A stretch of 56,409 nucleotides of DNA from a virus, in IMG/VR virus record IMGVR_UViG_3300031159_000001, one strand, 5' to 3'. The notes below the pieces were generated by a model that worked only from the letters and a program-made list of their open reading frames with translations, made no database searches and had not been told where the DNA came from. The position numbers and the translations under genes were made by a program. Below, one piece after another: positions 2,392-50,925 of this stretch (the first letter of the stretch is position 1; each line of letters opens with the position of its first letter).

Positions 2392-3789
2392 ATGGCGAAG
2401 GGCACGTTTGAGCGTCGCGGCGAAAATTCCTGGCGCCTCACCGTCGATTTGGGGTTCAACGCCCTGGGCGAACGTGAGCGGCGCAGGAAAACGATCTCGA
2501 TCGAGGAAGGTCCGGTATTGAAGGCAGTGCAGAAACTGATGGAGGTGAATCCGGACATTCTCAAATCTTCGGCCTCGCTGAATCGGTTCCTCAAGAACGG
2601 CGGGTCAGCGGATCTCGTCAGGCATGCGAATAAGGTAAAGCAGTTCTTTGACGAGGAGCTCATGCGGCTGAAGGTCGAGGCTGAAACCAGCAATCCGAAA
2701 GAGGTTCCGGAGAAAATGCCTTTTCGGGACTTGGCGAAAATTTGGCGGGAGAAGTATGCACCAGGCAACTATTCTCCTCGTACTTTGGTAAATTATCTCG
2801 ACCGGCTCGATTCTCATGTCATTCCTTATTTTGAGCGGTATTTCGTGGACGAGATCAAACCGCTGCATGTGCTGGATTTCAAAGACTACCTGACGAAGCC
2901 AGAAGCAAGGATGGACGGAAAGGATATCCCCCTTTCTCCCAGTGCCCAGCTCAACATTTTCAAGGTATTCGTCGCAGTCATGAATGCTGCGGTCGATCTG
3001 AAACTGATCAAAGATAACCCGGCGAAATCCGTCCCGGCCCCGAAGGTCCCGAAGAAAAAGAGGCAGAACGCATATGGCGACGAAGAAGCGATCCGGGCGA
3101 TTCTGGCGATGCTTCAGCTTCCATCTGTCTGGCGGCTCTACTACTTTGGCGCCATGATGGGCGGGTTCCGGCGCGGCGAGCTGCTGGCTCTCGAATGGTC
3201 TGACGTCGATTTTGAGAACAACCGCATATTCATCGGGAAAAGCATCTCGTGGACCCAAAATGGACAACCTATGATCAAGGGTACCAAAGAGGATAACGAA
3301 GAATGGGTCGATATGCCGGCATGGTATATGCGCGAACTGAAGGCATTCAAGAAGGAATGGAAGAAAGAAAAGCTAGCTATTCCTGAAAAAGAATGGCTCG
3401 GCGGAGAGTACGAGTTTGTTTTCCACTCCGGCTATGGTAAGCCGTATTACCACGATACTCCAACGCACACATGGCGGAAGTTTCTGAAGAAGCACGGGCT
3501 TCGTCACATTCGCCTCCACGATCTCCGTCATACAACGGCGACGCTGCTCGCCGAAGATGGTGTTGACCTGAAACTGATCCAGGAACGTCTCCGTCATGCC
3601 AAGTATGAGACGACGGCCGATTTTTATACGCACGTCACCAAGAAAGCCAGCCGCGGAGTCGCCAACCGACTCGAAAAATTCGATCCGCTGCAGCTTGCTG
3701 CCTCGCTGGGGACAAATTGGGGACAATCCGAATCAGAAATTATCGATCTCAACCGGTTCAGATACCTCAAACGAAAACACGAGCCTTGA
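2392..3789 (+). CDS. int: Tyrosine-recombinase integrase
   Basis: Catalytic boxes GFRRGELLALEWSDVD, HDLRHTTATLL and RLRHAKYETTADFYTH. The attP lies immediately downstream. Confidence 0.95.
   Translation: MAKGTFERRGENSWRLTVDLGFNALGERERRRKTISIEEGPVLKAVQKLMEVNPDILKSSASLNRFLKNGGSADLVRHANKVKQFFDEELMRLKVEAETSNPKEVPEKMPFRDLAKIWREKYAPGNYSPRTLVNYLDRLDSHVIPYFERYFVDEIKPLHVLDFKDYLTKPEARMDGKDIPLSPSAQLNIFKVFVAVMNAAVDLKLIKDNPAKSVPAPKVPKKKRQNAYGDEEAIRAILAMLQLPSVWRLYYFGAMMGGFRRGELLALEWSDVDFENNRIFIGKSISWTQNGQPMIKGTKEDNEEWVDMPAWYMRELKAFKKEWKKEKLAIPEKEWLGGEYEFVFHSGYGKPYYHDTPTHTWRKFLKKHGLRHIRLHDLRHTTATLLAEDGVDLKLIQERLRHAKYETTADFYTHVTKKASRGVANRLEKFDPLQLAASLGTNWGQSESEIIDLNRFRYLKRKHEP
3707..3727 (+). repeat. Arm-type repeat pair TGGGGACAAAT-TGGGGACAAT (putative P arm integrase sites)
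   Basis: A tandem 10-mer within the int 3' end. A near-identical pair sits at 3980-4000 on the other side of the tRNA-like core. Confidence 0.5.
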
Positions 3790-3842: not shown

Positions 3843-3886
3843 TTCCCAAGCTTGAGACGAGGGTTCGATTCCCTTCACCCGCTCCA
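3843..3886 (+). other. attP core: 3' 44 nt of a tRNA-Gly(CCC)-like gene (anticodon loop to CCA)
   Basis: ttcccaa/gcttg/agac/gaggg-ttcgatt-ccctt/cacccgc/t/cca folds as anticodon loop, 3' anticodon stem, variable loop, T arm, acceptor strand, discriminator U and CCA. No matching 5' half is found upstream. Confidence 0.7.
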
Positions 3887-5402: not shown

Positions 5403-5597
5403 CTAAATCTGGTTAATACGATCAACCTTTTCTTCCAATGCTGCTATGATAAATTCATTCAAGCTCATGCCAGCTTTTTTGGCTGCCGCTTCGTACACCG
5501 CCTTCCGCCCCTTCGGAACATACGGATACAGCCGGTCATAGTTTGCCGCATTGTATTTGTTCTTGGCCCGCGTTGAAGCTTTTCCTTTCCGCTCCAT
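5403..5597 (-). CDS. Ribbon-helix-helix (Arc/CopG-like) DNA-binding protein
   Basis: GAGGTG SD 7 nt before the ATG. A basic N-terminal strand region is followed by GMSLNEFIIAALEEKV, typical of RHH proteins. Confidence 0.7.
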   Translation of the reverse strand: MERKGKASTRAKNKYNAANYDRLYPYVPKGRKAVYEAAAKKAGMSLNEFIIAALEEKVDRINQI

Positions 5598-5657: not shown

Positions 5658-5686
5658 TTGACTATATACTCACGTTAGTATATAAT
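5658..5686 (+). promoter_or_regulatory. Promoter TTGACT-17-TATAAT
   Basis: Read directly. The spacer is occupied by operator copy 2. AAAGGAGG SD lies downstream. Confidence 0.7.
5666..5683. promoter_or_regulatory. Operator copy 2 ATACTCACGTTAGTATAT
   Basis: Fills the spacer and first bases of the -10 box of the + promoter. Confidence 0.6.
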
Positions 5687-5714
5687 TATAGGTAGAAAGG
5701 AGGTGAACAAGAGG

Positions 5715-5921
5715 ATGGACAAGCATACCATGAGGGCTTTCGAAAAGCTCCAAAAACGCGAACACCTCCTGCGGGTGCTGAATGACCGGTTGGCGCGCGG
5801 TATCATCACCCCGGAGGAGTTCGAGAAAGAGCAGACCAGCATCTTCGTGGTAACAGAACTGACCGACGAAGAACGCCGAGCCTACCGCCAGTATAACAGT
5901 CGGTCACGAAAAAGCAAGTAA
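5715..5921 (+). CDS. Small SHOCT-like domain protein
   Basis: LLRVLNDRLARGIITPEEFEKEQ resembles the SHOCT motif L..L...G.IT.EEFE..K. The ATG at 5715 is preferred over GTG 5703, which overlaps the SD. Confidence 0.55.
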   Translation: MDKHTMRAFEKLQKREHLLRVLNDRLARGIITPEEFEKEQTSIFVVTELTDEERRAYRQYNSRSRKSK

Positions 5922-5927
5922 TTCAGC

Positions 5928-5960
5928 GAAGGGAGCCGATCAGGCTCCCTTCCTCCGTTT
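5928..5960. terminator. Hairpin between convergent transcription units
   Basis: gaagggagcc-gatca-ggctcccttc forms a 10-bp stem. The U-tracts are weak in both directions. Confidence 0.5.
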
Positions 5961-6095
5961 AGTAACGAACCGAATCTTCCCCGCATATGAATCGTCCAAT
6001 AAGTCGGACATCTCTTGAAACGTCAACAGTACAGCCGGGATCAAGATGTTCCCGTAAACGAAATAGTCAAGGTAACGCCCCTTGCTTCGCTTCAT
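5940..6095 (-). CDS. Small predicted membrane protein (51 aa, below the ORF-track cut-off)
   Basis: ATG 6095 lies 6 nt after GGAAGGTGA and 7 nt after the upstream stop. Hydrophobic stretch YFVYGNILIPAVLLTF. The stop falls inside the hairpin. Confidence 0.4.
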   Translation of the reverse strand: MKRSKGRYLDYFVYGNILIPAVLLTFQEMSDLLDDSYAGKIRFVTKRRKGA

Positions 6096-6101
6096 ACCAT
6101 C

Positions 6102-6620
6102 TCACCTTCCCTTGAACTCGCACACCATCGCCGCCTGCTGGATCAGGTCGTCCGTGGTGTACTGAGCGTATATCCGCCCGAGCGCCGCATCAAACTCCGC
6201 GCGGCTTCGATATCGCGTCATCTGCCCGCGCAGCGCATCTTTGATCGTTCGTTCCGCTTCTTCAGATATGCCGACGGTTCGGATCGCTCTGATCATACCC
6301 TTCGGCCGGTCGACCAGGAACAGATTGACCGCGTTTCCCGGCTGGAAGAACTTCTCCGCATCCTGCTCGCTGATTCCGATCACATTCAGGGAAGCGTCCC
6401 ACGTCCAGCGGCTACCGAGGTATGAGACGGCAATCAGTGGTATGGAATCGATGACCGAAATATGAAGCCGCATGAAGGCATCGCGGAACGTCTTTACTTC
6501 CTTCGCCGTCGGGCCGTCGACGAAAGCGATCATGTCAAAACTGCTGCCGACGAGCTGGGCTGTGCACTGTTCGAACGATGGCACCGGCCCCGGCCACATG
6601 CCGCCTACTTCGTATCGCAC
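6102..6620 (-). CDS. Hypothetical protein (172 aa)
   Basis: Long ORF in the operon frame, overlapping the upstream HTH gene end. No recognisable motif. Confidence 0.65.
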   Translation of the reverse strand: MRYEVGGMWPGPVPSFEQCTAQLVGSSFDMIAFVDGPTAKEVKTFRDAFMRLHISVIDSIPLIAVSYLGSRWTWDASLNVIGISEQDAEKFFQPGNAVNLFLVDRPKGMIRAIRTVGISEEAERTIKDALRGQMTRYRSRAEFDAALGRIYAQYTTDDLIQQAAMVCEFKGR

Positions 6621-6847
6621 TTCGAATCATCCCCCCGATACGCGATCACCTGCTCCACCCGGAGACCGTACACCTGGCACAACTTTTCGATCACTTCCGA
6701 GCGCACCGGGAAGCGATCGTTCCAGATCTTTCCGCAGGTGTTCGAAGAGAAACCGCACTCCGAATACAGGTCTGTTTTTCTCTTCGGCCGGCTGCCGTCT
6801 CTTTGTTGTGCAAACCATTGACGAAAGGGTTCAAATGTCAGCGGCAT
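6605..6847 (-). CDS. XRE-like HTH DNA-binding protein
   Basis: LYSECGFSSNTCGKIWNDR..VRSEVIEKLCQVYG resembles a Cro/C1-type HTH. Overlaps the methyltransferase stop. Confidence 0.65.
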   Translation of the reverse strand: MPLTFEPFRQWFAQQRDGSRPKRKTDLYSECGFSSNTCGKIWNDRFPVRSEVIEKLCQVYGLRVEQVIAYRGDDSKCDTK

Positions 6848-7506
6848 GTTTCGTTCACCCCAGTTACTTCGTATTTCAGACCTTTCTCGAATAACTTCTC
6901 GACGAGTACAGCCAGACGCTTATGGTTTAATTCGGTCGCCACAAAACGCTTGCCGTTCTGGACGGCGTATAAACCGACCGTACCAAGTCCCATACAGAGA
7001 TCTCCGATGCAGGAAAAATCCTCATTCTTGCAGACCCACTCGATGATGTTCTCTTCATCCATGCCATCTAGCGGAAGCTTGACTCTCCTTTGCCCTCCTC
7101 GGATCACATAGCAGAGATTGTCCTTTTTGTGATAGTAGGTGCTATTGTAAAACGTAACCTGCGGGTACAGTTTGCGCATCTCAATCACAAAGTCGGCCAA
7201 ATACTCTTTCCCTACTTCAACATAGCAGGTATTTGGTCGAATCTCTGCGATTTGAGAAAATAAGCGTTTGTAAAACATTTCAAAATCATCCTGGTAATCA
7301 TCCCGATCCGCCTTCGTGTAGAATGAGTTAAGGTTACCCAAGTTCCATGGCGGATCTACAAAGATCAGATCGGCCTCTAGCATAAATTCGGGCAACGGAT
7401 CAAAGAGATTGTGTACTTTTGCCTTGCTACCATCCGAGAAGATGAGAGTATCACCCGGCTGAATCTGGTGGCGCAGATATGCGCCACCATAATCCCAATT
7501 AGACAT
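6838..7506 (-). CDS. DNA methyltransferase with DPPW motif (permuted amino-MTase, N6-adenine or N4-cytosine)
   Basis: IFVDPPW (motif IV) precedes DLCMGLGTVG (motif I-like). ATG 7506 overlaps the upstream stop by 8 nt. Confidence 0.8.
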   Translation of the reverse strand: MSNWDYGGAYLRHQIQPGDTLIFSDGSKAKVHNLFDPLPEFMLEADLIFVDPPWNLGNLNSFYTKADRDDYQDDFEMFYKRLFSQIAEIRPNTCYVEVGKEYLADFVIEMRKLYPQVTFYNSTYYHKKDNLCYVIRGGQRRVKLPLDGMDEENIIEWVCKNEDFSCIGDLCMGLGTVGLYAVQNGKRFVATELNHKRLAVLVEKLFEKGLKYEVTGVNETCR

Positions 7507-8086
7507 GCTCGTCCACCTCCACCATTTCCCATGACCGGGAGTAAATTTGATTTTTGAAGAGTTCCGCAATCCCCGTGATTTGCTTCAGCCGAAAAACCTC
7601 CTCCGGCTCCATTCCGAGCCTTGTAGAGATTTCTTCGTCCGTCAACCCTTGTTCAACCAGCGCGCGCACGAGCTCGGCCATGAGCTCCACCTGATGAACA
7701 CCGCGTGCGCGGTTAAACTGGACGGTCGCCGCCATGCGCTCGGCCATCGTTTGCTCCAGGACGATGATCGGGATAATGTCAGCATCCAACCATCGCTCAC
7801 CGAATATCGTATTCCGGTGGAAACCGTCCACAATCACAAAGCATCTTCGTTCTTCGTCGTACACCGTCACGACAGCAAATGTAAATCCGTTGCTGACGAT
7901 AGACTCCAGCAGCAACTGCATGTTATTGTCTGGAACATGATTCGGGTTGTAGTTGTTTGCCACGACCAGGTGGCGTGGGACAAGGATAGGGCACATCACA
8001 GGAAGTTTGACCTGTCCCTTCTTCGTCTGGATAACCGGAAAATCCGGAACCTCGAACACTCCTGCATCCGTTTCGTATCTTCTCAT
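7499..8086 (-). CDS. ParB-like nuclease-domain protein (IbrB/DndB-like)
   Basis: VIVDGFHR box (ParB/Srx DGxHR) and a C-terminal HTH-like GLTDEEISTRLGM. Confidence 0.8.
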   Translation of the reverse strand: MRRYETDAGVFEVPDFPVIQTKKGQVKLPVMCPILVPRHLVVANNYNPNHVPDNNMQLLLESIVSNGFTFAVVTVYDEERRCFVIVDGFHRNTIFGERWLDADIIPIIVLEQTMAERMAATVQFNRARGVHQVELMAELVRALVEQGLTDEEISTRLGMEPEEVFRLKQITGIAELFKNQIYSRSWEMVEVDEHV

Positions 8087-8087
8087 C

Positions 8088-9206
8088 TCACAATACCTCC
8101 TGCCAGTATTTTAGTCTTTCGATTCTCGGATCTGGTTTGTTATCAACCGGAAGGTTGTTTTCGTAATCGTTCAAAACAAGTTGTCTACATTGTTGTCGCG
8201 CTACATACTCGTTGTCCAGATGTTTCTCAAACCGTCTGACGAATATTTCTTTTTTTGTCTGATCCGGATATGTTTCGAGTAGGAAATCCCTATAATGACG
8301 CCATGATTTGAAATTCTTCGGCAGTTTAGAAACCTGAAGCATTTTCGACTCTTTACCATACAGGTTTCCGACACTGATTCCCTTGACACGTCGTAGCAAC
8401 CTGTCGTATGTTTTCGGCTCGAATTCTGGCAACTCAACGAGAGCCTTAAATGACTTTTCATGTATCAGACTGGATACGCGTATTTCCGACAGACCCAATC
8501 CTTTTTTATACATGTAGTCGTAAATTTTCGAATATCTAAGTTTTTCATCGTAGATGTATTTCCAGATATCATGAAAGTTCCAGTCGTAAAGAGGGTAGAA
8601 ACTGACATTGCCGTTTTCCATCGCAGTGCTCCAGAAAATATCCTTGTATCCTGGATTTTTGGACACAGCCCTCCACCTATTCGGGCTCTCTGTCGCGCGA
8701 AGTCCAACCAGGAATGCGGTATTGTGTCGTGTCAGTTGGAAGTTTTTTAGAACCGCGTAGAAATCGAGCCCGATGTCTTTGTTGAGTATAACTTCCGATT
8801 CACGATCCCATGACGGGTGATGGATCGCATCCTTGCGCTTCGGACGCATCCATATCTTGTGCTTTCCTGCCTCCCAACACCGCAAATACGGCTCGGTAAG
8901 GCTGGTTGCATTGGTCAAATTAAACTCTATCTGCAGCCACAGTTTGATCGTGTTCTGCGGATACAGATTCATGAGATAGTCAACCTGTTCAATGGTGCTT
9001 TCGTAGACTACCTCTTCATCGAGGAAAAACAGGCCGATCCTTCGCCCGCGTCGGTTGGCTTCCTTCAGCGCCAAATGGGCCAATACCGTGCTGTCCTTGC
9101 CGCCGCTGATGGAAACGATGATGTTTTCGAACTCATCGAAGATATAGGCGATCCGCTCGCGCGCTGCCTCCAAAACCGATTTATTCACATAAACTTGCTT
9201 TAGCAT
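8088..9206 (-). CDS. PAPS-reductase-family PP-loop ATP pyrophosphatase (IbrA/DndC-like)
   Basis: PP-loop SISGGKDS near the N-terminus. Long C-terminal extension as in IbrA-type proteins. Confidence 0.85.
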   Translation of the reverse strand: MLKQVYVNKSVLEAARERIAYIFDEFENIIVSISGGKDSTVLAHLALKEANRRGRRIGLFFLDEEVVYESTIEQVDYLMNLYPQNTIKLWLQIEFNLTNATSLTEPYLRCWEAGKHKIWMRPKRKDAIHHPSWDRESEVILNKDIGLDFYAVLKNFQLTRHNTAFLVGLRATESPNRWRAVSKNPGYKDIFWSTAMENGNVSFYPLYDWNFHDIWKYIYDEKLRYSKIYDYMYKKGLGLSEIRVSSLIHEKSFKALVELPEFEPKTYDRLLRRVKGISVGNLYGKESKMLQVSKLPKNFKSWRHYRDFLLETYPDQTKKEIFVRRFEKHLDNEYVARQQCRQLVLNDYENNLPVDNKPDPRIERLKYWQEVL

Positions 9207-10053
9207 AGAATTCTTCTAACCTCCCTATCCAGTGTTGCAGTTCACGAAAATAATGCTGATCGACCTTTAGCCCGGTGTTCAAGAACTGGACGCGACGCAT
9301 ACCTGTCGTTTTCAAAAAGTCGTTGAAGTCCAGTCGGCGGTGCGGGAAGTCGATGACGATATAGTCCCGCCGCTCGACGTGCTTGTACGTCGTGACGTTC
9401 GGCAGCTTAAATCTGTCGTTACGCGCGACGTACTCAAGCCCGGGCAAAATATGAGCGGCCTTGTACCTCCCGACGAAGACATGCAGATTGCGCGGGATCG
9501 TGTCTGGATCGGAGTTGCCAAGACCATCTAACAGCTGCACTTTCTTTTTTTCGTACTCTTGCAGCGCCTTTGCTGTGTGCCCAACATCGATGCTCTCAGC
9601 TATGATCCGCCGCGGCTTGGCGCGTACATCCTCGTCATGCAAAAAGGACCAGTCGAATGATTTTCCCTTGTATTTCCCCTTGTCCAGAAAGTCGAGGAGG
9701 ATCATAAAATCATCCTTGTCCTCGATAAAAGGAAACGTCTCGAACACGATTTTATGCGGCGTCTGATTGCAGTAGTGATGCGCACAGTTGTAGGTCAAAT
9801 CGCTGCGGTTTTGGGTGCGCATGCACTCATTGAAGACCAGGAGCGACCGCTCGTCAATCACCTCGAGCAAGTGGTAAAACGGTTTGTACTCGATGATGTC
9901 CTTGTAACCGTAATACTCGATCGGCACATCCACATCAAAAGAGACGTGGAAACTCTCCCAACTGAATGCATAGACATTTGTGATGCCGTGATTCTGGATG
10001 TATCGCTGCACGATATCTCTCTTCTCGGCATCCGACAGACCGATGCGGATCAT
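9181..10053 (-). CDS. Hypothetical protein (290 aa) with a Cys/His-rich patch
   Basis: Coupled to its neighbours by overlaps at both ends. Contains CMRTQNRSDLTYNCAHHYC. No recognisable domain. Confidence 0.6.
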   Translation of the reverse strand: MIRIGLSDAEKRDIVQRYIQNHGITNVYAFSWESFHVSFDVDVPIEYYGYKDIIEYKPFYHLLEVIDERSLLVFNECMRTQNRSDLTYNCAHHYCNQTPHKIVFETFPFIEDKDDFMILLDFLDKGKYKGKSFDWSFLHDEDVRAKPRRIIAESIDVGHTAKALQEYEKKKVQLLDGLGNSDPDTIPRNLHVFVGRYKAAHILPGLEYVARNDRFKLPNVTTYKHVERRDYIVIDFPHRRLDFNDFLKTTGMRRVQFLNTGLKVDQHYFRELQHWIGRLEEFYAKASLCE

Positions 10054-10256
10054 TGAAAGCGCCCCTTCATAAACTCACCAAAATTGAATCGTTTGGGCTT
10101 CTGCCCATACTTCAGCGCGATCTCGGCCGATCGCTGATTGAACCAATCGCGATACGGTTTCAATCGCTTCATCGCTTCCTTGTAGTCGATAGCCCCGGCG
10201 AGATACAACTCCCGTGTTTCCATGGCCTGCATTTTAATTTTATCCCCCTGGTTCAT
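10050..10256 (-). CDS. Hypothetical small protein (68 aa)
   Basis: ATGA overlaps with both the SNF2 stop and the next gene's start. Confidence 0.55.
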   Translation of the reverse strand: MNQGDKIKMQAMETRELYLAGAIDYKEAMKRLKPYRDWFNQRSAEIALKYGQKPKRFNFGEFMKGRFQ

Positions 10257-11761
10257 AGCGACAAAATCAACTCCTTCACTCGTTCTTTCATCCCCGAATC
10301 CCGAACCCGCTGCACTTCCCTCCGGAAACTTTCAACCGCACAGCCTTTTTCGAAAAGCGCAGCGCGAATACGGTCATCAATGGATTTCACACACCGGATG
10401 TCGATGTAGGTTGGTCTCCTCGTCTGGCCAATCCGGTGACAACGGTCTTCCGCCTGCACACGCTCAGAATACTTGAATCCGTTGTTATAAAACACTACAT
10501 AGGCTGCCTCATTCAAATTGAGGCCATGCCCACCAGTGCCCTGTGTCGCCACGAGGAATCGCGCTTCCCTCCGGAATTTCTCCAACTCCCGATTCCGCTT
10601 CATTTCGTTCAGCGCTCCGTAATAGTAGGCGACTGCATCCGCGCCATACCTTTGTTCGAGCGCCCGGCCGATCTGGGCGATGTCGTAGTGGTATTTCGCC
10701 CAGATGATGACTTTCTCATGCTCCGGGATCATCCAAATGGTGTGCAGGAGCTGTTCCAGCCGTTCGTGTGGAAATTCGTGCAGCTTCCCGCGATCATTCC
10801 AGAACCCGCAAACGATCTGCTGCAGGGCCGTTAACAAGCGGAAGATGCGTACACGATCCATGAATGGATCCGCATATTGCTCCTCTTCCCACAGGAACCG
10901 ATACTTCGCATACTCGTATGCCTCGCGCTGTTCAGGCGTCATTGTCACGCATCGAGTCTCGTACAACTTCGGCGGCAGCGTCATACATTCCTCTTTCGTC
11001 ACCTGGTACACATAGGGCCGGATCCGCGCGGCCAGATATTCTTCATTGTGAGTCCGCACAACCATTCCCGGATACTTCTCGCTGTATTCGAGATGGTTGG
11101 CCGCGAAGGAATAGAACGACTTGTAGCCCAGAATTTTCGGTGACAGGAAACGCATCTGGGCATACAGGTCGACCACCCCTTGTGTCAGCGGCGTACCGGT
11201 CATGGCCAGACGATACCGCGCGCGCTCGGAAAGCCGTGTGATGCGCTCTGTTCGTTTCGCCCGGTGGTTCTTGCAGTATTGGGACTCGTCCAGCGCGACG
11301 AACGAGCGTTCCGTGATCAGCTTGTTCACGGCGAACACAGTCCGCGCGCTGGACTGCATCGACTCGATGCCGACGACATACCAATCGGCCGGCGGGATGT
11401 TCCGCTCGTTGATCCGATCGTCGAAGACGCAGATCTCCGACGGCCGACAGTCGGTATGCTTCAGGATCTCGTGGCGCACCGTCTCCTTGAGAGAGACAGG
11501 GCAGAACCAGATAAAATGATCGATTTTCTGCGCGCGGACGCGCGCCAGTTCGATCGCAGTACGGCTTTTTCCTGTTCCCATCTCCATAAAGAGTGCTCCG
11601 ACGCGGCTCGGAAGCATCTTCGTCGCCGCGTCGAGTTGGTGAGGCATGAGGTCAGTCCGTGTCGCGAAGCTCCTCATCAATGCCCACATCCTCCGGCACT
11701 TCCAATTTCGGCGGTTCAGTAGAGACGACAACGCGCTTCGGATCCTCGGGTTTCTGGACAT
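10253..11761 (-). CDS. SNF2-family helicase/ATPase
   Basis: Motifs MGTGKS (I), LDESQ (II), GTGGHGLNL and RCHRIGQ (V-VI). The start is ambiguous (11761, 11689, 11677 or 11647) because the 5' end overlaps the upstream gene. Confidence 0.9.
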   Translation of the reverse strand: MSRNPRIRSALSSLLNRRNWKCRRMWALMRSFATRTDLMPHQLDAATKMLPSRVGALFMEMGTGKSRTAIELARVRAQKIDHFIWFCPVSLKETVRHEILKHTDCRPSEICVFDDRINERNIPPADWYVVGIESMQSSARTVFAVNKLITERSFVALDESQYCKNHRAKRTERITRLSERARYRLAMTGTPLTQGVVDLYAQMRFLSPKILGYKSFYSFAANHLEYSEKYPGMVVRTHNEEYLAARIRPYVYQVTKEECMTLPPKLYETRCVTMTPEQREAYEYAKYRFLWEEEQYADPFMDRVRIFRLLTALQQIVCGFWNDRGKLHEFPHERLEQLLHTIWMIPEHEKVIIWAKYHYDIAQIGRALEQRYGADAVAYYYGALNEMKRNRELEKFRREARFLVATQGTGGHGLNLNEAAYVVFYNNGFKYSERVQAEDRCHRIGQTRRPTYIDIRCVKSIDDRIRAALFEKGCAVESFRREVQRVRDSGMKERVKELILSL

Positions 11762-12818
11762 TCAGCAGCAGCGCCCGGTCCTTCGCCTCTCTCGCCTTCT
11801 GAACCAGTTCCTCGGCGCCAGGTGAAAGAGCGAAATCGTAACGCTGGGCAAAGTCCATGATCTCGTCGAATTGCTCTGGACGAACAAGCATATAGGGATT
11901 GGACCATTTTGCCGTCGGCAGCCGTTTGGCCACCGAATAGTAATCTTCATTGATCCGGTCCCACATAATGCCGAAATACTCGACTCCGGACTCGGTTCGC
12001 CTGAACACCCAGCGCGTGTGCTCGGGCTCATATGATCCAGAAATTGCCTTTTCCCGGGCCTGCGGATCATCGAGGCGAACGATGAATCCTTCAGAAAGAA
12101 GGTGATGCGCTGCCTCTGCTGCGCGGTCGTGGATGGAACCGCTGAAGAGATCCATCTTTCTCTCCCACACTCCATGTTTCCATGACATCCGAAGTTTTTC
12201 TTGAACCACCTTCCGGAAATCGTCACGGGATTCCGGAAAGCGGATCTGGAGTTTTTTGCCCTCGATCCGAATCTCAGCAATCGTCTCCGTCTTCGGATTC
12301 TCCGGCCGGAGCGGCGGCAACGGTTCGGGTTGGCAGGTCTCCTCTACCTTCTGTGCTTTCGTTCGGCGCTCAATCAGAATATCTTCATATATCTTCTTCA
12401 ACACAACCCCGACTTCCGCATATCGTTCGTTCTCAATCCACCATTTTGCGGATGAGATCTGCAATATCCGGTCGAAAATGACCGGAACTTCGTCCCACGG
12501 GAATCGATAGAAACGTCCGAAACGATCAGCATCATTTTCCCATTTTTCAATGAACTTCTCGATTCTCGAGACGAGCTTCATTCGGCAGGTTTCGCCGTAG
12601 GCGATTTGCTTTTCAGAAACACCTTTAAGATTCGGAAGCTCCATTTCCCGGGCTTTTTCCGCATTCTGTACATTTTCCGCTTGACGTTGCTTCGCCAAAC
12701 ATTCATCGCACGGCCTTTCAAACCATTTCTTTGCCTTCCATTCCCTGTGTTTGTGCGGCCCGTAGATTTGCACGCGGCCGTCATGGCCGCAGGAATGCGT
12801 GCCGTAGTGCCATGCCAT
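11652..12818 (-). CDS. Hypothetical protein (388 aa) with an N-terminal Cys/His cluster
   Basis: First gene after the strong minus-strand promoter, with a GGAGG SD. Contains HSCGH...CDEC. No other recognisable domain. Confidence 0.7.
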   Translation of the reverse strand: MAWHYGTHSCGHDGRVQIYGPHKHREWKAKKWFERPCDECLAKQRQAENVQNAEKAREMELPNLKGVSEKQIAYGETCRMKLVSRIEKFIEKWENDADRFGRFYRFPWDEVPVIFDRILQISSAKWWIENERYAEVGVVLKKIYEDILIERRTKAQKVEETCQPEPLPPLRPENPKTETIAEIRIEGKKLQIRFPESRDDFRKVVQEKLRMSWKHGVWERKMDLFSGSIHDRAAEAAHHLLSEGFIVRLDDPQAREKAISGSYEPEHTRWVFRRTESGVEYFGIMWDRINEDYYSVAKRLPTAKWSNPYMLVRPEQFDEIMDFAQRYDFALSPGAEELVQKAREAKDRALLLNVQKPEDPKRVVVSTEPPKLEVPEDVGIDEELRDTD

Positions 12819-12854: not shown

Positions 12855-12883
12855 ATTATATATTATCGCGCCGATTTAATCAA
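12855..12883 (-). promoter_or_regulatory. Promoter TTGATT-17-TATAAT for the 10-gene minus operon
   Basis: The minus strand reads TTGATT (12883-12878), a 17-nt spacer, then TATAAT (12860-12855). Confidence 0.7.
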
Positions 12884-12974: not shown

Positions 12975-13172
12975 ATGAGGCTCGATAAAAACATGGATGA
13001 GCTTGTTATGATTGGGAAAGAAGGCATCCGCCAAGTCATGGCGGAACTGTTTCGCCACAACGTAGAAGTGCATCCCGACGACATGGACACGATCATCGAC
13101 GCATGCGAAACGCTCGGGATGAGCGACGAGGAAATCGATGAACTGATTGATTCTGCGGCACAGAATCAGTAA
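12975..13172 (+). CDS. Small highly acidic protein (65 aa)
   Basis: Strong SD. D/E-rich C-terminus DDMDTIIDACETLGMSDEEIDELID. No recognisable domain. Confidence 0.65.
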   Translation: MRLDKNMDELVMIGKEGIRQVMAELFRHNVEVHPDDMDTIIDACETLGMSDEEIDELIDSAAQNQ

Positions 13173-13268
13173 AAGCCCGCCTGACGATGACCGGATGGCT
13201 ACCGGTCGAAACATCCCTAATAAGGGGATGTCGCGGGAAGCCGCACAAAACCAAAAGGAGGGGTAATA

Positions 13269-13643
13269 ATGAAAAAGATTCTCTTCGATAAGGAATATGG
13301 CGGCAAGGTCCACATGGTCGCTACATATGAACGAGAAGACTTCTACTATCTTCCGGGTGAAACTCCGTCCGATCACATCATGATCGAACGGAAAACGGAA
13401 AAGGAAAACCACATGGTTGTTCTCACGTTTGAAGAATTGGAGAAAATCTACCTTGAAACGAAGAAAGTGCGGTCCATCACGAAGTGGGTAGTATATGCAA
13501 GGGATCGCGGCGGCGATCCGCACAACGATGAACGCGCACGCATCGTCGACGAGGCCATAGAAAAGTGCCTTGAAGAGCTCGGAATCGGACAAGGAACGGC
13601 GGAAGCGGTCGGCGTGACAGAGGAATTTCTCGAATACTTCTGA
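13269..13643 (+). CDS. Hypothetical protein (124 aa)
   Basis: AAAAGGAGGGG SD 6 nt before the ATG. No recognisable domain. Confidence 0.7.
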   Translation: MKKILFDKEYGGKVHMVATYEREDFYYLPGETPSDHIMIERKTEKENHMVVLTFEELEKIYLETKKVRSITKWVVYARDRGGDPHNDERARIVDEAIEKCLEELGIGQGTAEAVGVTEEFLEYF

Positions 13644-13665
13644 TTAATCATCCAGCCGGCAGAGC

Positions 13666-13749
13666 AAAAAAGTGAAGCCCTCCGGTCTCGCACACCGGAA
13701 GGCTTCAGGGCAGAGACTATGGACAGCCCTCTGCCCCTCCATTATAACA
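13666..13749 (-). ncRNA. Candidate antisense small RNA (extended -10 promoter, two hairpins, terminator)
   Basis: The minus strand reads TGtTATAAT (13749-13741), a GGGCAGAG/CTCTGCCC hairpin, a 12-bp stem (13674-13706), then ACTTTTTTG. Confidence 0.3.
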
Positions 13750-13764
13750 CAGGAGGGTATTTAT

Positions 13765-14829
13765 ATGATCAAGGAAATTTTGTCAAAACACTTCGTTTTT
13801 GTGGATGAGATGGCCGAAGCTCTGGAACTGGCCATCTTCGGAAAAAAGAACTGCATCATCTACGGACCTGGTGGCCACGGGAAGTCCGAGATGGTACAGA
13901 CGGTCATTCGCGAACTGGAGCTGGAAAACGAGACGTTCTTCCAGTTCTTCGGTGAAGGCATGGACGAATCCCGCCTGTTCGGCGGCCTGGACTTTCGGAA
14001 GTTGGAGGAGGAAAAGGTTCTGGAGTATCACCCGGAGCGTTCCTTCATGAACTACAGGATCGCCGTATTCGAAGAACTGTTCGACGCTCCGGCGCAGGTT
14101 CTTTTGGCGCTGAAGGATGTACTGACGGCGCGGGAGCTCCGGAACGGAGCCCAGCGCTTCAAGGTCAGGACGGAAACCATCATCGTCCTGACCAACAAGG
14201 AACCGTCGGAAATCAGCGAACTTGGTCCGTCGGCCCATGCGCTGATCGAACGTTTCCCGCTACAACTGCATCTGCGGTGGGAGCGTTACGGGGCCAAGGA
14301 ATACCTCGCCCTGTTCGAAAAAATCGAAGCCCGCGCCGGAACTCCGATGCTCAACGGATTCAAAAAGGTGCTGGCCGATATTCTCGCGAAGGCCACAGCC
14401 GACGGAAACTTTGTATCGCCACGGACGGCGGTACACGCATACGAGCTTTGCCAAATCTCCGCACGTATGCGCGAGGATTCGGAAGTCCGCAAGGAAGATA
14501 TGTTGCGGTTGAAGTTTCTCCCCGGTCTGGAGGAATTGACGAAGACCGTGGAAGAAGACATCGCCCGCGCCATCGAAAAGGCGCAGGCGGAAGAAAAAAT
14601 CAAACGTTTCGAATCGGCCTTCGCCGACATTCGAAACGAGTTCAATGCGGCTGATTCTCCGATTCGCTACCTGAAGGTAGCGAAAAAGCTCCGTCAGATG
14701 CAAGATGAACTGGCAGAGCTCCGGATCCCGGATGAACTGACTTCCCGGAGAAACGAATTCCGGGGAGAAATAACAAAGTGGATTTCCTACGCGCAGGAAA
14801 AGGCGCTGGAAACCACTTGGGTAAGGTGA
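13765..14829 (+). CDS. MoxR/CobS-like AAA+ ATPase
   Basis: Walker A GPGGHGKS and Walker B-like IAVFEELFDA. ATG 13765 has an AGGAGGG SD 7 nt upstream. Confidence 0.85.
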   Translation: MIKEILSKHFVFVDEMAEALELAIFGKKNCIIYGPGGHGKSEMVQTVIRELELENETFFQFFGEGMDESRLFGGLDFRKLEEEKVLEYHPERSFMNYRIAVFEELFDAPAQVLLALKDVLTARELRNGAQRFKVRTETIIVLTNKEPSEISELGPSAHALIERFPLQLHLRWERYGAKEYLALFEKIEARAGTPMLNGFKKVLADILAKATADGNFVSPRTAVHAYELCQISARMREDSEVRKEDMLRLKFLPGLEELTKTVEEDIARAIEKAQAEEKIKRFESAFADIRNEFNAADSPIRYLKVAKKLRQMQDELAELRIPDELTSRRNEFRGEITKWISYAQEKALETTWVR

Positions 14830-14835
14830 TCTGCC

Positions 14836-16146
14836 ATGACGTTCCGAACATCTCCGCCGGAATTCTACATTCCGCCCTCTCCCGAAGAAATGCGGGAGGC
14901 GGCGGACAAAGCTGGCGTCAGAACTTTTTCCCGTGATCTGGTTGCGGACTTCTGCAACCTGGTCGCGGGAGGGAGAATCAACCATCCGTCCTCGTACATG
15001 AATAATGTGCTTAAACGTGTGGAGGAAAGGCTGCAAGAACCCGATATGTATGGCCGGTGGAAATCTCCGCGTGGCTATGCCAAAAACCGCCACGACGCCT
15101 TGCGTGCTTGGGTGTCGTGGGAAATGCAGTATCACCAGAACGTCTGCGATTTCCTGCAGACGTTGGAGTTTGATAAATTCCCTGGATCTTCTCCGCTGGA
15201 GAAGGCCATGAACATCCTAAAACTCCTCTCGGCCAAATACGGCCGGGAAGGGAGGGGAGAAGAAAACGGAACTCCGATCCCGATTTTTTTGGAATCGGGA
15301 ACCGAAAAGTTTGCGAAAGAGCTGAACCACATCATGGAAGATGTGGACAGCCTTTCTGAGGCAGAGAAAGAGTTGTTGGACCCTGAAGGTTCCGACAACT
15401 ATCTCCGCAATATGAAGATCGCCGAGGACATGGCGAAGGGGAAGGAGGTGATACTGAAAATTTCCCGCCAGCTGGACTCTATGTCCAAAATGGCGGTCAA
15501 ACGGTCAGCGAAAGTCGAATCGTACCCGGAAGGCGACGAGGTCCGCTACCGCCAAATCCGGCACCTGGGCGAACTCGGGCGAATTCCGGCCGCCGAATGG
15601 GCGCTTCCGAATACCTACCGATTGTACCGTGCGATTTCCCGCATGACACCTGTCCGGGAACGGGCTCGCCGGACGGAGAAAAAGCAACTGCTTTACATCC
15701 TCATCGATTGCTCGGGGTCGATGGAGGATGGGCAAAGAATATTCAAGGCTTTCGGTGTGCTCATGAACCGCCTGAAAGCCGTATTGGCGGGGGATGCCGA
15801 GCTGTACGTCCGCCTCTTCGATGAGTCGCTGCGCACCGAGCACTTCGCGGCGACACCGGAAGAGGCAAAGAAACTCATGAACACCTTCTCCGAAAGAAAC
15901 TTCTCCGGTGGTGGTACTGACATTTCCGGCTGCGTGCTTAAGGCGCACAGCCGGATCGAGGAAATCATGCGGGAAGGGCGCCATCATCGGCCAGAGCTGG
16001 TGGTGGTCACCGATGGCGATGACAAAATCACCATCGGAGCGAAGGACATTTCCGGTACTCGACTCCATGCCTTTGTGGTCGAGAACCGGAACGAAAAACT
16101 TATCAACCTCGCCAAAAACACTGGCGGGGTGGGGATTTATCTATAA
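14836..16146 (+). CDS. von Willebrand factor A (VWA) domain protein
   Basis: C-terminal MIDAS elements LIDCSGSM, SGGGTD and VVVTDGDD. Starts 6 nt after the AAA+ stop. Confidence 0.85.
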   Translation: MTFRTSPPEFYIPPSPEEMREAADKAGVRTFSRDLVADFCNLVAGGRINHPSSYMNNVLKRVEERLQEPDMYGRWKSPRGYAKNRHDALRAWVSWEMQYHQNVCDFLQTLEFDKFPGSSPLEKAMNILKLLSAKYGREGRGEENGTPIPIFLESGTEKFAKELNHIMEDVDSLSEAEKELLDPEGSDNYLRNMKIAEDMAKGKEVILKISRQLDSMSKMAVKRSAKVESYPEGDEVRYRQIRHLGELGRIPAAEWALPNTYRLYRAISRMTPVRERARRTEKKQLLYILIDCSGSMEDGQRIFKAFGVLMNRLKAVLAGDAELYVRLFDESLRTEHFAATPEEAKKLMNTFSERNFSGGGTDISGCVLKAHSRIEEIMREGRHHRPELVVVTDGDDKITIGAKDISGTRLHAFVVENRNEKLINLAKNTGGVGIYL

Positions 16147-16159
16147 AGGAGGAATATAC

Positions 16160-16504
16160 ATGAGGATTGTTTGGTTTTCCAGACATACCCCTCTTCCGAA
16201 GCAAGTCGAAGAACTGAAGCGAATTTTCGGACCCGATACGGAAGTGATCCAGGACCCGAATCCATTCTCAACAGCAGATGACGTGGTCCAGCGCTTCCGT
16301 TCCATGGGCGGCGAAGAAATGGTCGTGGTTGCGCCGCTGTCGGTCATCGACCAGCTTCTGAAACGCGGAATCCGTCCTCTTTTCGCTGAAATGGACCTTG
16401 TAAAGGATGGAGGTGAATACGACGTAATTGCGAACGGCCGGATGTATCGCTTCGTCCGGTTCGTCCGCATAACATCAATTGAAATAAAAAAAGAGGTGGT
16501 CTAA
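16160..16504 (+). CDS. Hypothetical protein (114 aa)
   Basis: ATG 16160 lies after AAGGAGG. The ORF-track 5' extension overlaps the VWA gene. Confidence 0.65.
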   Translation: MRIVWFSRHTPLPKQVEELKRIFGPDTEVIQDPNPFSTADDVVQRFRSMGGEEMVVVAPLSVIDQLLKRGIRPLFAEMDLVKDGGEYDVIANGRMYRFVRFVRITSIEIKKEVV

Positions 16505-16505
16505 G

Positions 16506-16781
16506 ATGCGCATATGCAAAGCGTCGGATTGCACCAACCGCGTTCCGCCACGGCCTACGCCAGGGAAGCCGCGGGAATACTGTTCGGATCAATGTCGGGA
16601 TCGGGAAAAAGCGCGGCGGTACAGGAAACTCCGGGCGAAGAAAGGACTGTGCCCCCAGTGCGGCGGACCGATGGACTCGCCGGTATCACCGCACCGGAAC
16701 AAAGTCAGCCCGCAGTACTGTACCCGGTGTCAGGAGTATTTCCGGGAGCGCCACCAGAAAAAGAAAGAACCCGCCAGTTAA
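16506..16781 (+). CDS. Basic Cys-rich zinc-ribbon-like protein
   Basis: Contains C..C...C...C and CPQCG...CTRC pairs. Starts 1 nt after the previous stop. Confidence 0.6.
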   Translation: MRICKASDCTNRVPPRPTPGKPREYCSDQCRDREKARRYRKLRAKKGLCPQCGGPMDSPVSPHRNKVSPQYCTRCQEYFRERHQKKKEPAS

Positions 16782-50451: not shown

Positions 50452-50925
50452 CTAATCATCGTTTCCGATCCCGAACGACTCCCTGAAATTCTCGGGAATC
50501 AAAATTGCGTCCACGTCTTGCATGATCTTGTATGGATCCCTGCAAAGTTCGGATCCCGTATACCTCAGGACGATATAACCGCGTTTCGTAAAGAACCTGT
50601 CTCGCTGTTTGTCGTGCGCAGCCTGCTCTTTCGTCCGCTCGTGGTAGTCGTGCCCGTCGCACTCGATGATGATCTTTCGGTCAATCGCCGGATTGTCCAG
50701 AGGTTGGTACCGAATCAGAAAATCCACCCGGTACTTACCAATTTGCTCCTGACAACTGAAGCTGAAATTGTTCATCCCGTACTGAAGTTGCAGATCATAG
50801 ATGGCTAAGAATGCGATCCGTTCAATTGGCGTTAACTCGTGCTCAACCATCTTCAGTGTTTCGCTCCACAACCAATCGCGAATACCGGTGATTCTGTTTT
50901 TCCAATAATTCCAGTCCTTGAGCAT
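50452..50925 (-). CDS. DUF559/Vsr-like endonuclease-fold protein
   Basis: YRVDFLI...IIIECDGHDYH...GYIVLRYTG pattern. Confidence 0.7.
   Translation of the reverse strand: MLKDWNYWKNRITGIRDWLWSETLKMVEHELTPIERIAFLAIYDLQLQYGMNNFSFSCQEQIGKYRVDFLIRYQPLDNPAIDRKIIIECDGHDYHERTKEQAAHDKQRDRFFTKRGYIVLRYTGSELCRDPYKIMQDVDAILIPENFRESFGIGNDD

Follow-up and report, generated by a model that had tools for sequence, protein, structure and literature searches.

The locus described here raises the question of what an IbrA/IbrB pair does when it is built into an operon together with a DNA translocase and a methyltransferase. Few uncharacterised two-gene modules are as common on mobile elements as pairs of the IbrA/IbrB type, whose paralogs in Escherichia coli K-12 are ybdNM. 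In the literature that we searched we found no mechanism for IbrA or IbrB, nor any study, functional or structural, that deals with phage IbrAB, with DUF3440 or with the cassette described here. That cassette lies in IMG/VR virus record IMGVR_UViG_3300031159_000001, a viral DNA of 56,409 nucleotides that we refer to as the window. On its minus strand six genes encode, in the order of transcription, a 388-residue protein (p388), an SNF2-family ATPase, a 290-residue protein (p290), an IbrA-like PP-loop enzyme, an IbrB-like ParB/Srx-fold protein and a small amino-methyltransferase. These genes are a real, coherent and widely conserved six-gene unit with variable accessories, and we tentatively read the unit as a motor-coupled DNA-modification machine that a temperate phage carries for its own benefit.

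The conservation of the unit is seen in its order and in its fusions. The order p388–SNF2–p290–IbrA–IbrB–methyltransferase recurs in about 25 loci, mostly in prophages of Clostridia, and these neighbourhood scans bear out the co-occurrence of the 290- and 388-residue proteins with IbrAB pairs that a first-pass annotation of the window had put forward for checking. With p290 as the query, all seven IMG/VR loci carry p290-IbrA-IbrB-methyltransferase. In a profile scan of one genome per species, which gave 17 loci (in Caldicoprobacter, Pelotomaculum, three Clostridium, Anaerobacterium, Peptostreptococcus, and in metagenome-assembled genomes binned, uncertainly, to other phyla), the order SNF2-p290-IbrA-IbrB-methyltransferase is found in 16 as far as the contig extends, with p388 upstream in twelve. 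The full six-gene order, including an identical 26-nt overlap of p290 with IbrA, is present in a prophage of Pelotomaculum propionicicum (L012) and in locus L013; the cassette order is kept in L035-L044 also, and it persists even in loci where p290 identity falls to 46-54%. Moreover, the first three proteins occur as fusions in other genomes. SNF2 and p290 form a single polypeptide in L011, P0130, P0133 and P0252, with p290 at the C-terminus; P0132 (1144 residues) is a triple fusion of a p388-like part, then SNF2, then p290; and P0372 (665 residues) joins the C-terminal repeats of p388 to SNF2. These independent gene fusions are the strongest evidence that p388, SNF2 and p290 work as one functional unit or complex. 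This motor unit is in turn genetically welded to IbrA, IbrB and the methyltransferase by a fixed order and by overlapping genes.

In the window the cassette belongs to a run of ten minus-strand open reading frames (ORFs) that lie head to tail from 12818 to 5940, abutting or overlapping (Table 1). The first-pass annotation had described just such a run, joined by start/stop overlaps, and all ten ORFs are indeed found at the coordinates it gave; with the best-supported starts the successive junctions are -26, -4, -4, -26, +1, -8, -10, -16 and +6 nt. Two starts had to be moved, that of SNF2 to what is most likely an ATG at 11677 rather than 11761 (the longest ORF), and that of the methyltransferase to what is most likely an ATG at 7506 rather than a TTG at 7569, and both starts agree with those called independently on further copies of this phage. 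Ribosome-binding sites of the GGAGG type precede most starts, including the ATG of p388 at 12818. Relative to a related locus (L005, 63-92% identical), the ratio of nonsynonymous to synonymous substitution rates (dN/dS) is 0.03-0.16, a sign of purifying selection, in eight of the ten genes, the other two having saturated dS, and therefore even the small ORFs are real genes. With their motifs intact and invariant, and at this dN/dS, the catalytic parts look active. The promoter that had been proposed to drive the run, TTGATT-17-TATAAT, is present at exactly 12883-12855; promoter-like sites in the region are, however, no commoner than in shuffled sequence (9 found against 8.0 ± 2.9 expected), and only its position makes this one a plausible promoter.

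Table 1. Features of the cassette and of its surroundings, in coordinates of the window
Feature	Coordinates	Strand	Remarks
p388	11652..12818	-	388 residues; zinc-ribbon-like N-terminus, helical domain at about 60-160, beta-beta-alpha repeats at about 180-250 and 270-330
SNF2-family ATPase	10253..11677	-	474 residues; Walker A GTGKS, DESQ and QAEDRCHRIGQ motifs intact
p290	9181..10053	-	290 residues; predicted SNF2-like two-lobe core without Walker A; new family
IbrA-like PP-loop ATP pyrophosphatase	8088..9206	-	372 residues; PAPS_reduct and a shortened DUF3440
IbrB-like ParB/Srx-fold protein	7499..8086	-	195 residues; motifs ANxYNPN, DGFHR, NRARG
Small amino-methyltransferase, putatively beta-class	6838..7506	-	222 residues; DPPW (motif IV) ahead of motif I IGDLCMGxG
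p68	10050..10256	-	ATGA overlaps on both sides; phrog_10302 at 2e-13; dN/dS 0.06
HTH80, Cro/C1-type helix-turn-helix protein	6605..6847	-	Pfam HTH_26 at 5.7e-7, 30 bits (above gathering score); dN/dS 0.06
p172	6102..6620	-	phrog_12389 at 2e-13; dN/dS 0.16
p51	5940..6095	-	Small ORF that ends the run; conserved counterpart in L005 (1.6e-22)
Sigma-70-like promoter candidate TTGATT-17-TATAAT	12855..12883	-	Hexamers present; divergent intergenic region upstream of p388, shared with the plus-strand operon
Divergent MoxR-AAA+/VWA operon	12975-16781	+	Adjoins the cassette in the accessory island between the lysis genes and attP
Tyrosine integrase	2392-3789

The 474-residue protein has what defines the SNF2 family, namely two RecA-like lobes, Walker A, DExx and motif VI, and both Pfam domains, SNF2-rel_dom (67.1 bits, 1.9e-18) and Helicase_C (47.8 bits, 1.9e-12), are above their gathering scores. 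It matches phrog_62 at 1.8e-100, and among solved structures the Sulfolobus SNF2/Rad54 core (1z63, 2.6e-26) is the nearest to it. The protein p290 is predicted to share the fold alone and, having no P-loop, is probably not an active member of the family. It has no match in Pfam, PHROG, NCBIfam or PADLOC, and a tblastn search of phages and plasmids found none either; its family, 646 homologs in 220 clusters at 50% identity (the listed ones having about 290 residues and 54% identity or more), has been seen only in metagenomes, metagenome-assembled genomes and a few genomes of Clostridia. An AlphaFold2 model (predicted local distance difference test, pLDDT, 90.9; predicted template-modelling score, pTM, 0.88) has as its top 40 and more Foldseek matches nothing but SNF2 ATPase cores (E about 1e-6, probability 1.0, template-modelling score at most 0.65), among them Chd1, ISWI, Snf2h, INO80, Mot1, RapA and the vaccinia RNA-polymerase-associated ATPase. 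The likeness is structural only, since hhalign of the p290 profile against the SNF2 protein of the window and against Gaia gp102 found no relation at the level of sequence. There is no glycine-rich P-loop after strand 1; the consensus of SNF2 motif II/IIa is DEGHRIKNxxS, and the p290 segment FNECMRTQNRS reads like a decayed version of it, followed downstream by an invariant patch, RT..R....YNCAHHY.QT. From its predicted structure p290 is probably an SNF2-derived protein that has lost its ATPase activity, and it probably serves as an adaptor between the motor and IbrA. A protein of this kind without Walker A, beside an active SNF2 enzyme, is a rare bacterial example.

In p388, residues C10, C37 and C40 of the zinc-ribbon-like N-terminus are invariant, and the helical domain carries the motif LxGTEKQIAWAExIR...AKWWIxNR. 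The protein has no Pfam match, HARP included, although its N-terminal part matches phrog_16123; its family counts 103 homologs. In IMG/VR a single-sequence pattern scan found nothing, and p388 was recovered there with hidden Markov models (HMMs). Searched with an AlphaFold2 model (pLDDT 91), the PDB gives nothing at E ≤ 1e-3, the top match being XPB (E 0.028, probability 0.63), and BFVD gives a 'zinc-ribbon domain protein' and a Bacillus phage 'HepA-related protein' (E 5.8e-3, probability 1.0). A HARP-like nature of the repeats in this model is thus suggestive, not established. The helical segment resembles residues 58-143 of AcrIF23 (7fia; E 4e-5) and faintly also AcrIE7, and its motif looks like a widespread phage helical module. 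An anti-CRISPR role for p388 was rejected, as the loop with which AcrIF23 binds Cas2/3 is formed by residues 17-28 and lies outside the matched part. The first-pass annotation had counted three proteins of the run as having no recognisable fold; two of the three now have assignments, p290 (a predicted SNF2-like core) and p388 (zinc-ribbon-like, helical and possibly HARP-like), and the cassette defines these as two new protein families.

The resemblance to HARP brings up an explanation in which p388 and SNF2 form a SMARCAL1-like fork-remodelling (annealing) helicase, a helper in replication or repair that happens to lie beside an unrelated IbrAB pair and methyltransferase. As in SMARCAL1/HARP and in phage 'HepA-related' proteins, the SNF2 core is preceded by predicted tandem beta-beta-alpha repeats (split here, fused in P0372 and P0132), which weakly resemble the HARP and XPB damage-recognition domains, and SNF2 helicases of phrog_62 are common in phage DNA-metabolism modules. 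However, the HARP match is weak, and SMARCAL1 has neither a zinc-ribbon-like element nor a helical domain like that of AcrIF23, nor does it have p290 as a partner. The motor is fused to p290, which is found only next to IbrA, the synteny with IbrAB extends across phyla, and the cassette is far from the DnaB/replication-O module. The cassette also moves as a unit, to the point that a p290 remnant accompanies IbrA, IbrB and the methyltransferase even on a Fusobacterium plasmid, and we regard a mere replication or repair helper as very improbable.

The methyltransferase has motif IV, D-[PS]-P-W, followed by IGDLCxGxG, which is the beta-class order, and both motifs are invariant in 18 homologs. 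It has weak matches to phrog_67 and to MTase_II as well, and its closest solved relatives, again weak, are the likewise very short N6-adenine methyltransferases DpnA/M1.HpyAVI (E 1.3e-3). Because its length leaves no room for one, the enzyme would have no conventional target-recognition domain, and it is an orphan.

IbrA has the architecture for which the family is known, PAPS_reduct (PF01507, 64.1 bits against a cut-off of 22.5; 2.2e-17) followed by DUF3440 (PF11922, 44.8 bits against a cut-off of 25; 1.5e-11), and matches phrog_2302 at 1.2e-86; DUF3440 is shortened, which gives a protein of 372 residues where relatives have 400-446. Between Clostridia prophages and phages of Flavobacterium, Lactobacillus, Streptococcus, Faecalibacterium and Mycobacterium the SGGKDS motif does not vary, nor do certain Arg, Trp and Asp residues. 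The aligned relatives have no invariant cysteine in common, and sulfur chemistry of the DndC/SspD kind is therefore unlikely. By family profile the nearest solved relatives are FAD synthase (its PAPS-reductase-like domain), CysH and CysD, and some of these enzymes move AMP onto a phosphate or sulfate oxygen. Taken with the lack of a conserved cysteine, these profile neighbours argue for a putative adenylation chemistry and against sulfur transfer of the DndC or ThiI type. A true PAPS reductase, that is an auxiliary gene of sulfur metabolism, was rejected on two grounds, the lack of a catalytic cysteine and the constant pairing with a DNA-binding, ParB-like partner.

The gene of that partner, IbrB, follows after 1 nt, and each of the two products has the architecture that defines the pair. 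IbrB matches phrog_2159 at 4.2e-50 and keeps ANxYNPN, DG.HR and NRARG invariant, with DG.HR unchanged even in distant relatives. Profile comparison links it to Noc, ParB/Spo0J, SbnI and free serine kinase, which are NTP-binding proteins of the ParB/Srx fold; neither IbrB nor IbrA has a close solved structure. IbrB also matches phrog_498 at 3.9e-6, a family of 633 positions annotated 'DNA methyltransferase', and coupling of a ParB domain to a methyltransferase thus appears to be a wider phage theme. Fusions of the PHROG 498 type likewise join a ParB/Srx domain to a beta-class amino-methyltransferase on a mobile element, whereas here the two are separate genes, always found with IbrA and usually with the SNF2 unit. 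Two further roles for the pair were rejected. A toxin-antitoxin pair, as guessed by automated predictors, does not fit the sizes of the proteins, their invariant catalytic motifs or the multi-enzyme synteny, and a role of IbrB in DNA packaging, suggested by its position beside terminase genes in some phages, does not fit a cassette that here is separated by about 25 kb from the genes for head and packaging.

In E. coli IbrA and IbrB reportedly activate otherwise silent prophage eib genes, and the pair is said to have been named from this phenotype in 2002. In the ECOR-9 IbrAB island and in YbdN-YbdM of K-12 we find the same combination of PAPS_reduct and DUF3440 with a ParB/Srx DGxHR protein, borne by prophages and plasmids; the pair of the window differs in the length of IbrA, given above, and in being set within a cassette with SNF2, p388, p290 and the methyltransferase.

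The wider neighbourhood of IbrA was surveyed with local HMMs in the best 80 of at least 276 IMG/VR loci. IbrB is adjacent to IbrA in 78 of the 80, and the cassette methyltransferase family is nearby in 20, in both gene orders, with methyltransferase-IbrA-IbrB found even where IbrA is 30-45% identical (for this reverse order, L053, L062, L065 and L110). SNF2 is near IbrA in 16 loci, p290 in 11, only where IbrA is at least 61% identical, and p388 in seven, including L048 and L113, which have p388-SNF2-IbrAB without p290. In L007-L010 and L015 a second, small PAPS_reduct protein takes the place of SNF2 and p388. Such proteins, of 230-263 residues and without DUF3440, flank SNF2-less IbrAB cassettes in L007-L010, L015, L036 and L047. 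Short SNF2-IbrA/IbrB triads are present in the cultured phages FCL-2 (Flavobacterium), CR28 (Lactobacillus) and CHPC1148 (Streptococcus thermophilus). In Mycobacterium phage Gaia we find a PD-(D/E)XK protein, IbrA and a cupin::IbrB fusion; the annotated upstream 'helicase' is the PD-(D/E)XK protein, and therefore a helicase-IbrAB triad is not universal. With megablast, the 7-kb region had no match among cultured phages. From these neighbourhoods the system is modular: its core is IbrA-IbrB, to which a methyltransferase, an SNF2 unit or p290 is repeatedly added, and the full set is present in this window. Such re-assortments, being independent, link the parts to one another.

Two observations on these relatives may be added. 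IbrB is fused to an ectoine-synthase-like cupin in Gaia (L014 5608-6507) and in Pseudoalteromonas phage XCL1123, which hints at extra enzymatic chemistry on IbrAB. In locus L044 (5218-10694) a tandem duplication places p290-IbrA-IbrB and then p290-IbrA-IbrB-methyltransferase behind SNF2 and a short p388-like gene.

The E. coli phenotype points to an explanation in which the cassette is a transcriptional co-activator or anti-silencing device, IbrB acting as a ParB-like clamp while SNF2 remodels complexes of DNA with nucleoid proteins or, like RapA, with RNA polymerase; phage or host genes would be switched on, and IbrA and the methyltransferase would be cofactors or would write regulatory marks. 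The sole reported phenotype of IbrAB is after all the activation of silent prophage eib genes (Sandt et al. 2002), and database annotation follows it in calling the pair a 'co-activator of prophage gene expression'. The closeness of the IbrB profile to Noc and ParB fits as well, as does the position of the pair in phage FP_Taranis, between a RinA-like activator and the terminase genes. The RapA and vaccinia matches of p290 are in keeping with it too, although they are part of a general SNF2 list. A pure regulator, however, would have no use for a PP-loop enzyme that is kept invariant or for a methyltransferase that looks active, both under strong purifying selection, and the position of the cassette relative to late genes is not fixed. 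We consider such a device quite unlikely, and less likely than the DNA-modification machine proposed above.

How the cassette stands to described systems was examined by profile searches. These recovered, by motif or profile, every component that the first-pass annotation had named (SNF2, IbrA with SGGKDS, IbrB with DGFHR and the DPPW methyltransferase), and its impression that no described defence system matches is upheld by a PADLOC run, in which there are only partial matches, to ZorD, DpdE, DrmD, DndC, BrxP and MTase_II, all of them confined to generic cores (helicase, PP-loop or methyltransferase). The equivalog models, whose cut-offs are 290-1500 bits, reach no more than 19-63 bits. The signature partners that it had not recognised by eye, namely cysteine desulfurase, DndD/E, TGT, PglZ/BrxC and DUF1998/PLD, are likewise absent from the ten proteins in searches of Pfam, PADLOC and NCBIfam.

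With Dnd and Ssp the cassette shares a PAPS-reductase-family PP-loop enzyme and a DGxHR ParB-like protein on a mobile element, and perhaps, as proposed below, ATP activation of DNA. However, DndA/IscS, DndD and DndE were not found among the ten proteins, the DndC equivalog (TIGR03183) scores 19 bits against a cut-off of 290.4, and IbrA has no conserved cysteines for an iron-sulfur cluster or a persulfide. BREX type 4 contributes only a partial BrxP match of 66 residues (4.3e-5), and PglZ, BrxC/PglY and BrxL were not found. Dpd offers a ParB-like NTPase that assists a DNA-modifying enzyme and superfamily 2 helicases in the same cluster, with partial DpdE matches of the SNF2 core, but the cassette has no TGT/DpdA, DpdB, DpdC or preQ0 synthesis genes, its modifying enzyme would be a PP-loop protein, and the matches to DpdE/DpdF are to generic helicase cores only (DpdE equivalog 23 bits against a cut-off of 500). 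DISARM combines an SNF2 ATPase with a DNA methyltransferase in one operon (DrmD, DrmMI/MII); here DrmA, DrmB (DUF1998) and DrmC (PLD) were not found, NF038318 (DrmD) scores 32.5 bits against a cut-off of 950, and the cassette is phage-borne, with related modules in phages annotated without an integrase. The likeness to Zorya is limited to the helicase core (NF041790, ZorD, 63 bits against a cut-off of 1500), ZorA/ZorB/ZorC and the Mrr-like nuclease not being found. The Aravind-lab surveys of Dnd and BREX make no mention of IbrAB. By these comparisons the cassette is a member of the IbrAB family and not of Dnd, Ssp, BREX-4, Dpd, DISARM or Zorya. In its workings it may resemble Dpd or Dnd, where a ParB-like NTPase helps a DNA-modifying enzyme, and also DISARM, with its pairing of SNF2 motor and methyltransferase. 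The combination had been called undescribed, which holds for the extended cassette and not for its centre, since IbrA/IbrB is a named pair and SNF2-IbrAB triads already exist in FCL-2, CR28 and CHPC1148. The novelty lies in the extended cassette and in the unexplained mechanism of the pair, not in the pairing itself.

Read in the direction of the phage, the window has tail genes, holin and amidase (17632-16907), the MoxR/VWA operon, the cassette, a few small genes, attP and the integrase. The cassette is thus where the first-pass annotation had placed it, between attP and the lysis genes and outside the replication module, with DnaB and the replication-O gene 35 kb away. The attP core (window about 3843-3886; L115 16168-16241) is the 3' part of a tRNA-Gly(CCC) gene, and on the 85-kb metagenomic contig L115 the same phage is integrated in tRNA-Gly(CCC), with divergence at window position 3843-3848 approximately and host genes for a GerE regulator, a transporter of the major facilitator superfamily and trigger factor beyond the junction. 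Since the window is the excised or circular form, the phage is seen in both states.

The composition and distribution of the cassette fit a horizontally mobile accessory element. With a G+C content of 0.44-0.49, the IbrA-IbrB stretch (7001-9000) is below most of the structural region, where values are roughly 0.52-0.60, and IbrA is 76% identical to the Pelotomaculum prophage copy; p388 has diverged far more (E 1e-80, where IbrA reaches 2e-202), which fits a horizontally exchanged enzyme core. The plasmid copy mentioned above, on pFV113-g1-2 of Fusobacterium varium (L032 661-3811), is a decayed cassette beside mobA, with a p290 remnant of 41 residues, IbrA (68% identical), IbrB, the methyltransferase and a resolvase.

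Another explanation is prophage defence or superinfection exclusion. The enzymes would mark the DNA of lysogen and prophage, and unmarked incoming DNA would be attacked, possibly by IbrB as a ParB/Srx-type nuclease or NTPase together with SNF2, in the manner of the modification-dependent systems DISARM, Dnd and BREX. Known defence systems use components of these kinds (SNF2, PP-loop, ParB-like, methyltransferase), and the partial PADLOC matches described are to such systems. The cassette lies past the lysis genes at 2-3 kb from attR, has a promoter-like site of its own and adjoins the MoxR AAA+/VWA pair. Set against this is the lack of any recognisable restriction effector (PLD, HNH, REase, Mrr, PglZ); searches of Pfam, PHROG, PADLOC and NCBIfam found no nuclease or other effector domain in the cassette. 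IbrB has no PADLOC match whatever, and those of the other proteins are to generic cores only. SNF2-IbrAB is moreover carried by FCL-2 and CHPC1148, which we take to be lytic phages, where protection of a lysogen makes no sense; the genome stretches read of both contain no integrase. We therefore judge a defence role unlikely. The occurrence in these two phages, the lack of an effector domain, the orphan methyltransferase and the position after the lysis genes are our reasons for favouring a role that serves the phage itself.

We propose that such a machine would work as follows. The repeats of p388, presumed to bind DNA in a structure-specific way, and its zinc-ribbon-like element would place the SNF2 translocase on DNA, and p290 would tether IbrA, IbrB and the methyltransferase to the motor. 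IbrB would bind or open DNA in a manner dependent on nucleoside triphosphate (NTP), as DpdB does for DpdA according to a published review. IbrA would then use ATP to adenylate an oxygen of the DNA, either a base carbonyl or a phosphate, and a nucleophile other than sulfur could displace the adenylated oxygen. Oxygen adenylation is the general chemistry of PP-loop enzymes of the PAPS-reductase family, such as TilS, ThiI, CysD and FAD synthase. The methyltransferase, going wherever the complex goes, would methylate an exocyclic amine, be it on ordinary A or C or on the product of IbrA. The outcome would be a covalent mark on the DNA of the element, by which it may evade restriction or other DNA-targeting immunity, or which may serve as an epigenetic label. 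The machine may act late and before packaging, as in the case of Mu mom, and late action is compatible with a cassette that lies after the lysis genes, within reach of late transcription.

Several points weigh against the DNA-modification machine. Both the modification and DNA as its substrate are things that we infer from sequence, and the score of the methyltransferase with Pfam N6_N4_Mtase, 19.8 bits, is below the cut-off of 26.7. The cassette encodes no amidotransferase or other donor of a nucleophile, and with no conserved cysteine in IbrA the chemistry of modification is undefined. Expression in the lysogen could equally well occur, given the sigma-70-like promoter candidate of the cassette itself and its position near attR, a region that is a typical site of accessory genes expressed in lysogens. 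To our knowledge the activation of eib genes is the sole experimental phenotype of IbrAB. Finally, the pair was found in 223 cultured-phage and 721 plasmid records, including plasmids of Klebsiella and E. coli, and very often it stands alone, as on Klebsiella plasmids, in E. coli ybdNM and in most of the 80 viral loci; it must therefore have a function that needs neither motor nor methyltransferase.

A more specific and bolder version of the mechanism, which we put forward as doubtful, is that IbrA/IbrB carries out an undescribed DNA chemistry, an ATP-dependent and sulfur-independent adenylation of base carbonyl or backbone phosphate on DNA that is already in place. SNF2, p388 and p290 would deliver the pair processively and the methyltransferase would finish the product, giving a hypermodified nucleotide in two post-replicative steps.

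The remaining genes of the run and its neighbours vary more. The small protein p68, found in L005 and in copies of the same phage only, is lineage-specific and outside the conserved core. HTH80 is present in L005 while L013 has an unrelated helix-turn-helix protein of 61 residues at the same place; it is a variable accessory and possibly regulates the cassette. The gene for p172 comes after the methyltransferase in L005, L012/L018, L020, L025, L026 and L029, so that it is frequent but not universal, and p51 has no family match in Pfam, PHROG, PADLOC or NCBIfam. Downstream lies a convergent pair of ORFs of 64 residues (5403-5597, minus strand) and 72 residues (5703-5921, plus strand), with a YolD-like ORF further on; the 72-residue ORF has a weak SHOCT match on the matching gene call and is preceded at 5658-5686 by a promoter-like site with 11 of 12 consensus positions. 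On the other side of the cassette, the plus-strand operon encodes two small proteins, a MoxR AAA+ protein (13672-14829; bpMoxR 4e-16), a VWA protein (14836-16146) and a zf-CGNR protein (16506-16781), and it may be a second conflict or accessory system. Within the replication module of the window a DUF559/REase_MTES_1575 protein with a Vsr-like endonuclease fold (50452-50925, minus strand) is encoded between a replication-O-like gene and a gene for a metallo-beta-lactamase fold.

For the IbrAB family the value of the cassette lies in its fixed partners. Since these are a translocase with a putatively structure-reading subunit, a probable, motor-like adaptor that lacks Walker A and a methyltransferase that lacks a recognition domain, they strongly suggest that IbrAB acts on DNA, and they turn the question of what IbrA and IbrB do into a directly testable hypothesis of DNA modification. 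If DNA is indeed modified, this would be a new anti-restriction or epigenetic strategy in phages of anaerobic Firmicutes, perhaps with a new base or backbone chemistry. If the adenylation chemistry also proves to be new, the enzymes would form a new class that writes on DNA, with minimal versions in the thousands of IbrAB pairs that stand alone, among them E. coli ybdNM and the pairs of Klebsiella plasmids and of many phages.

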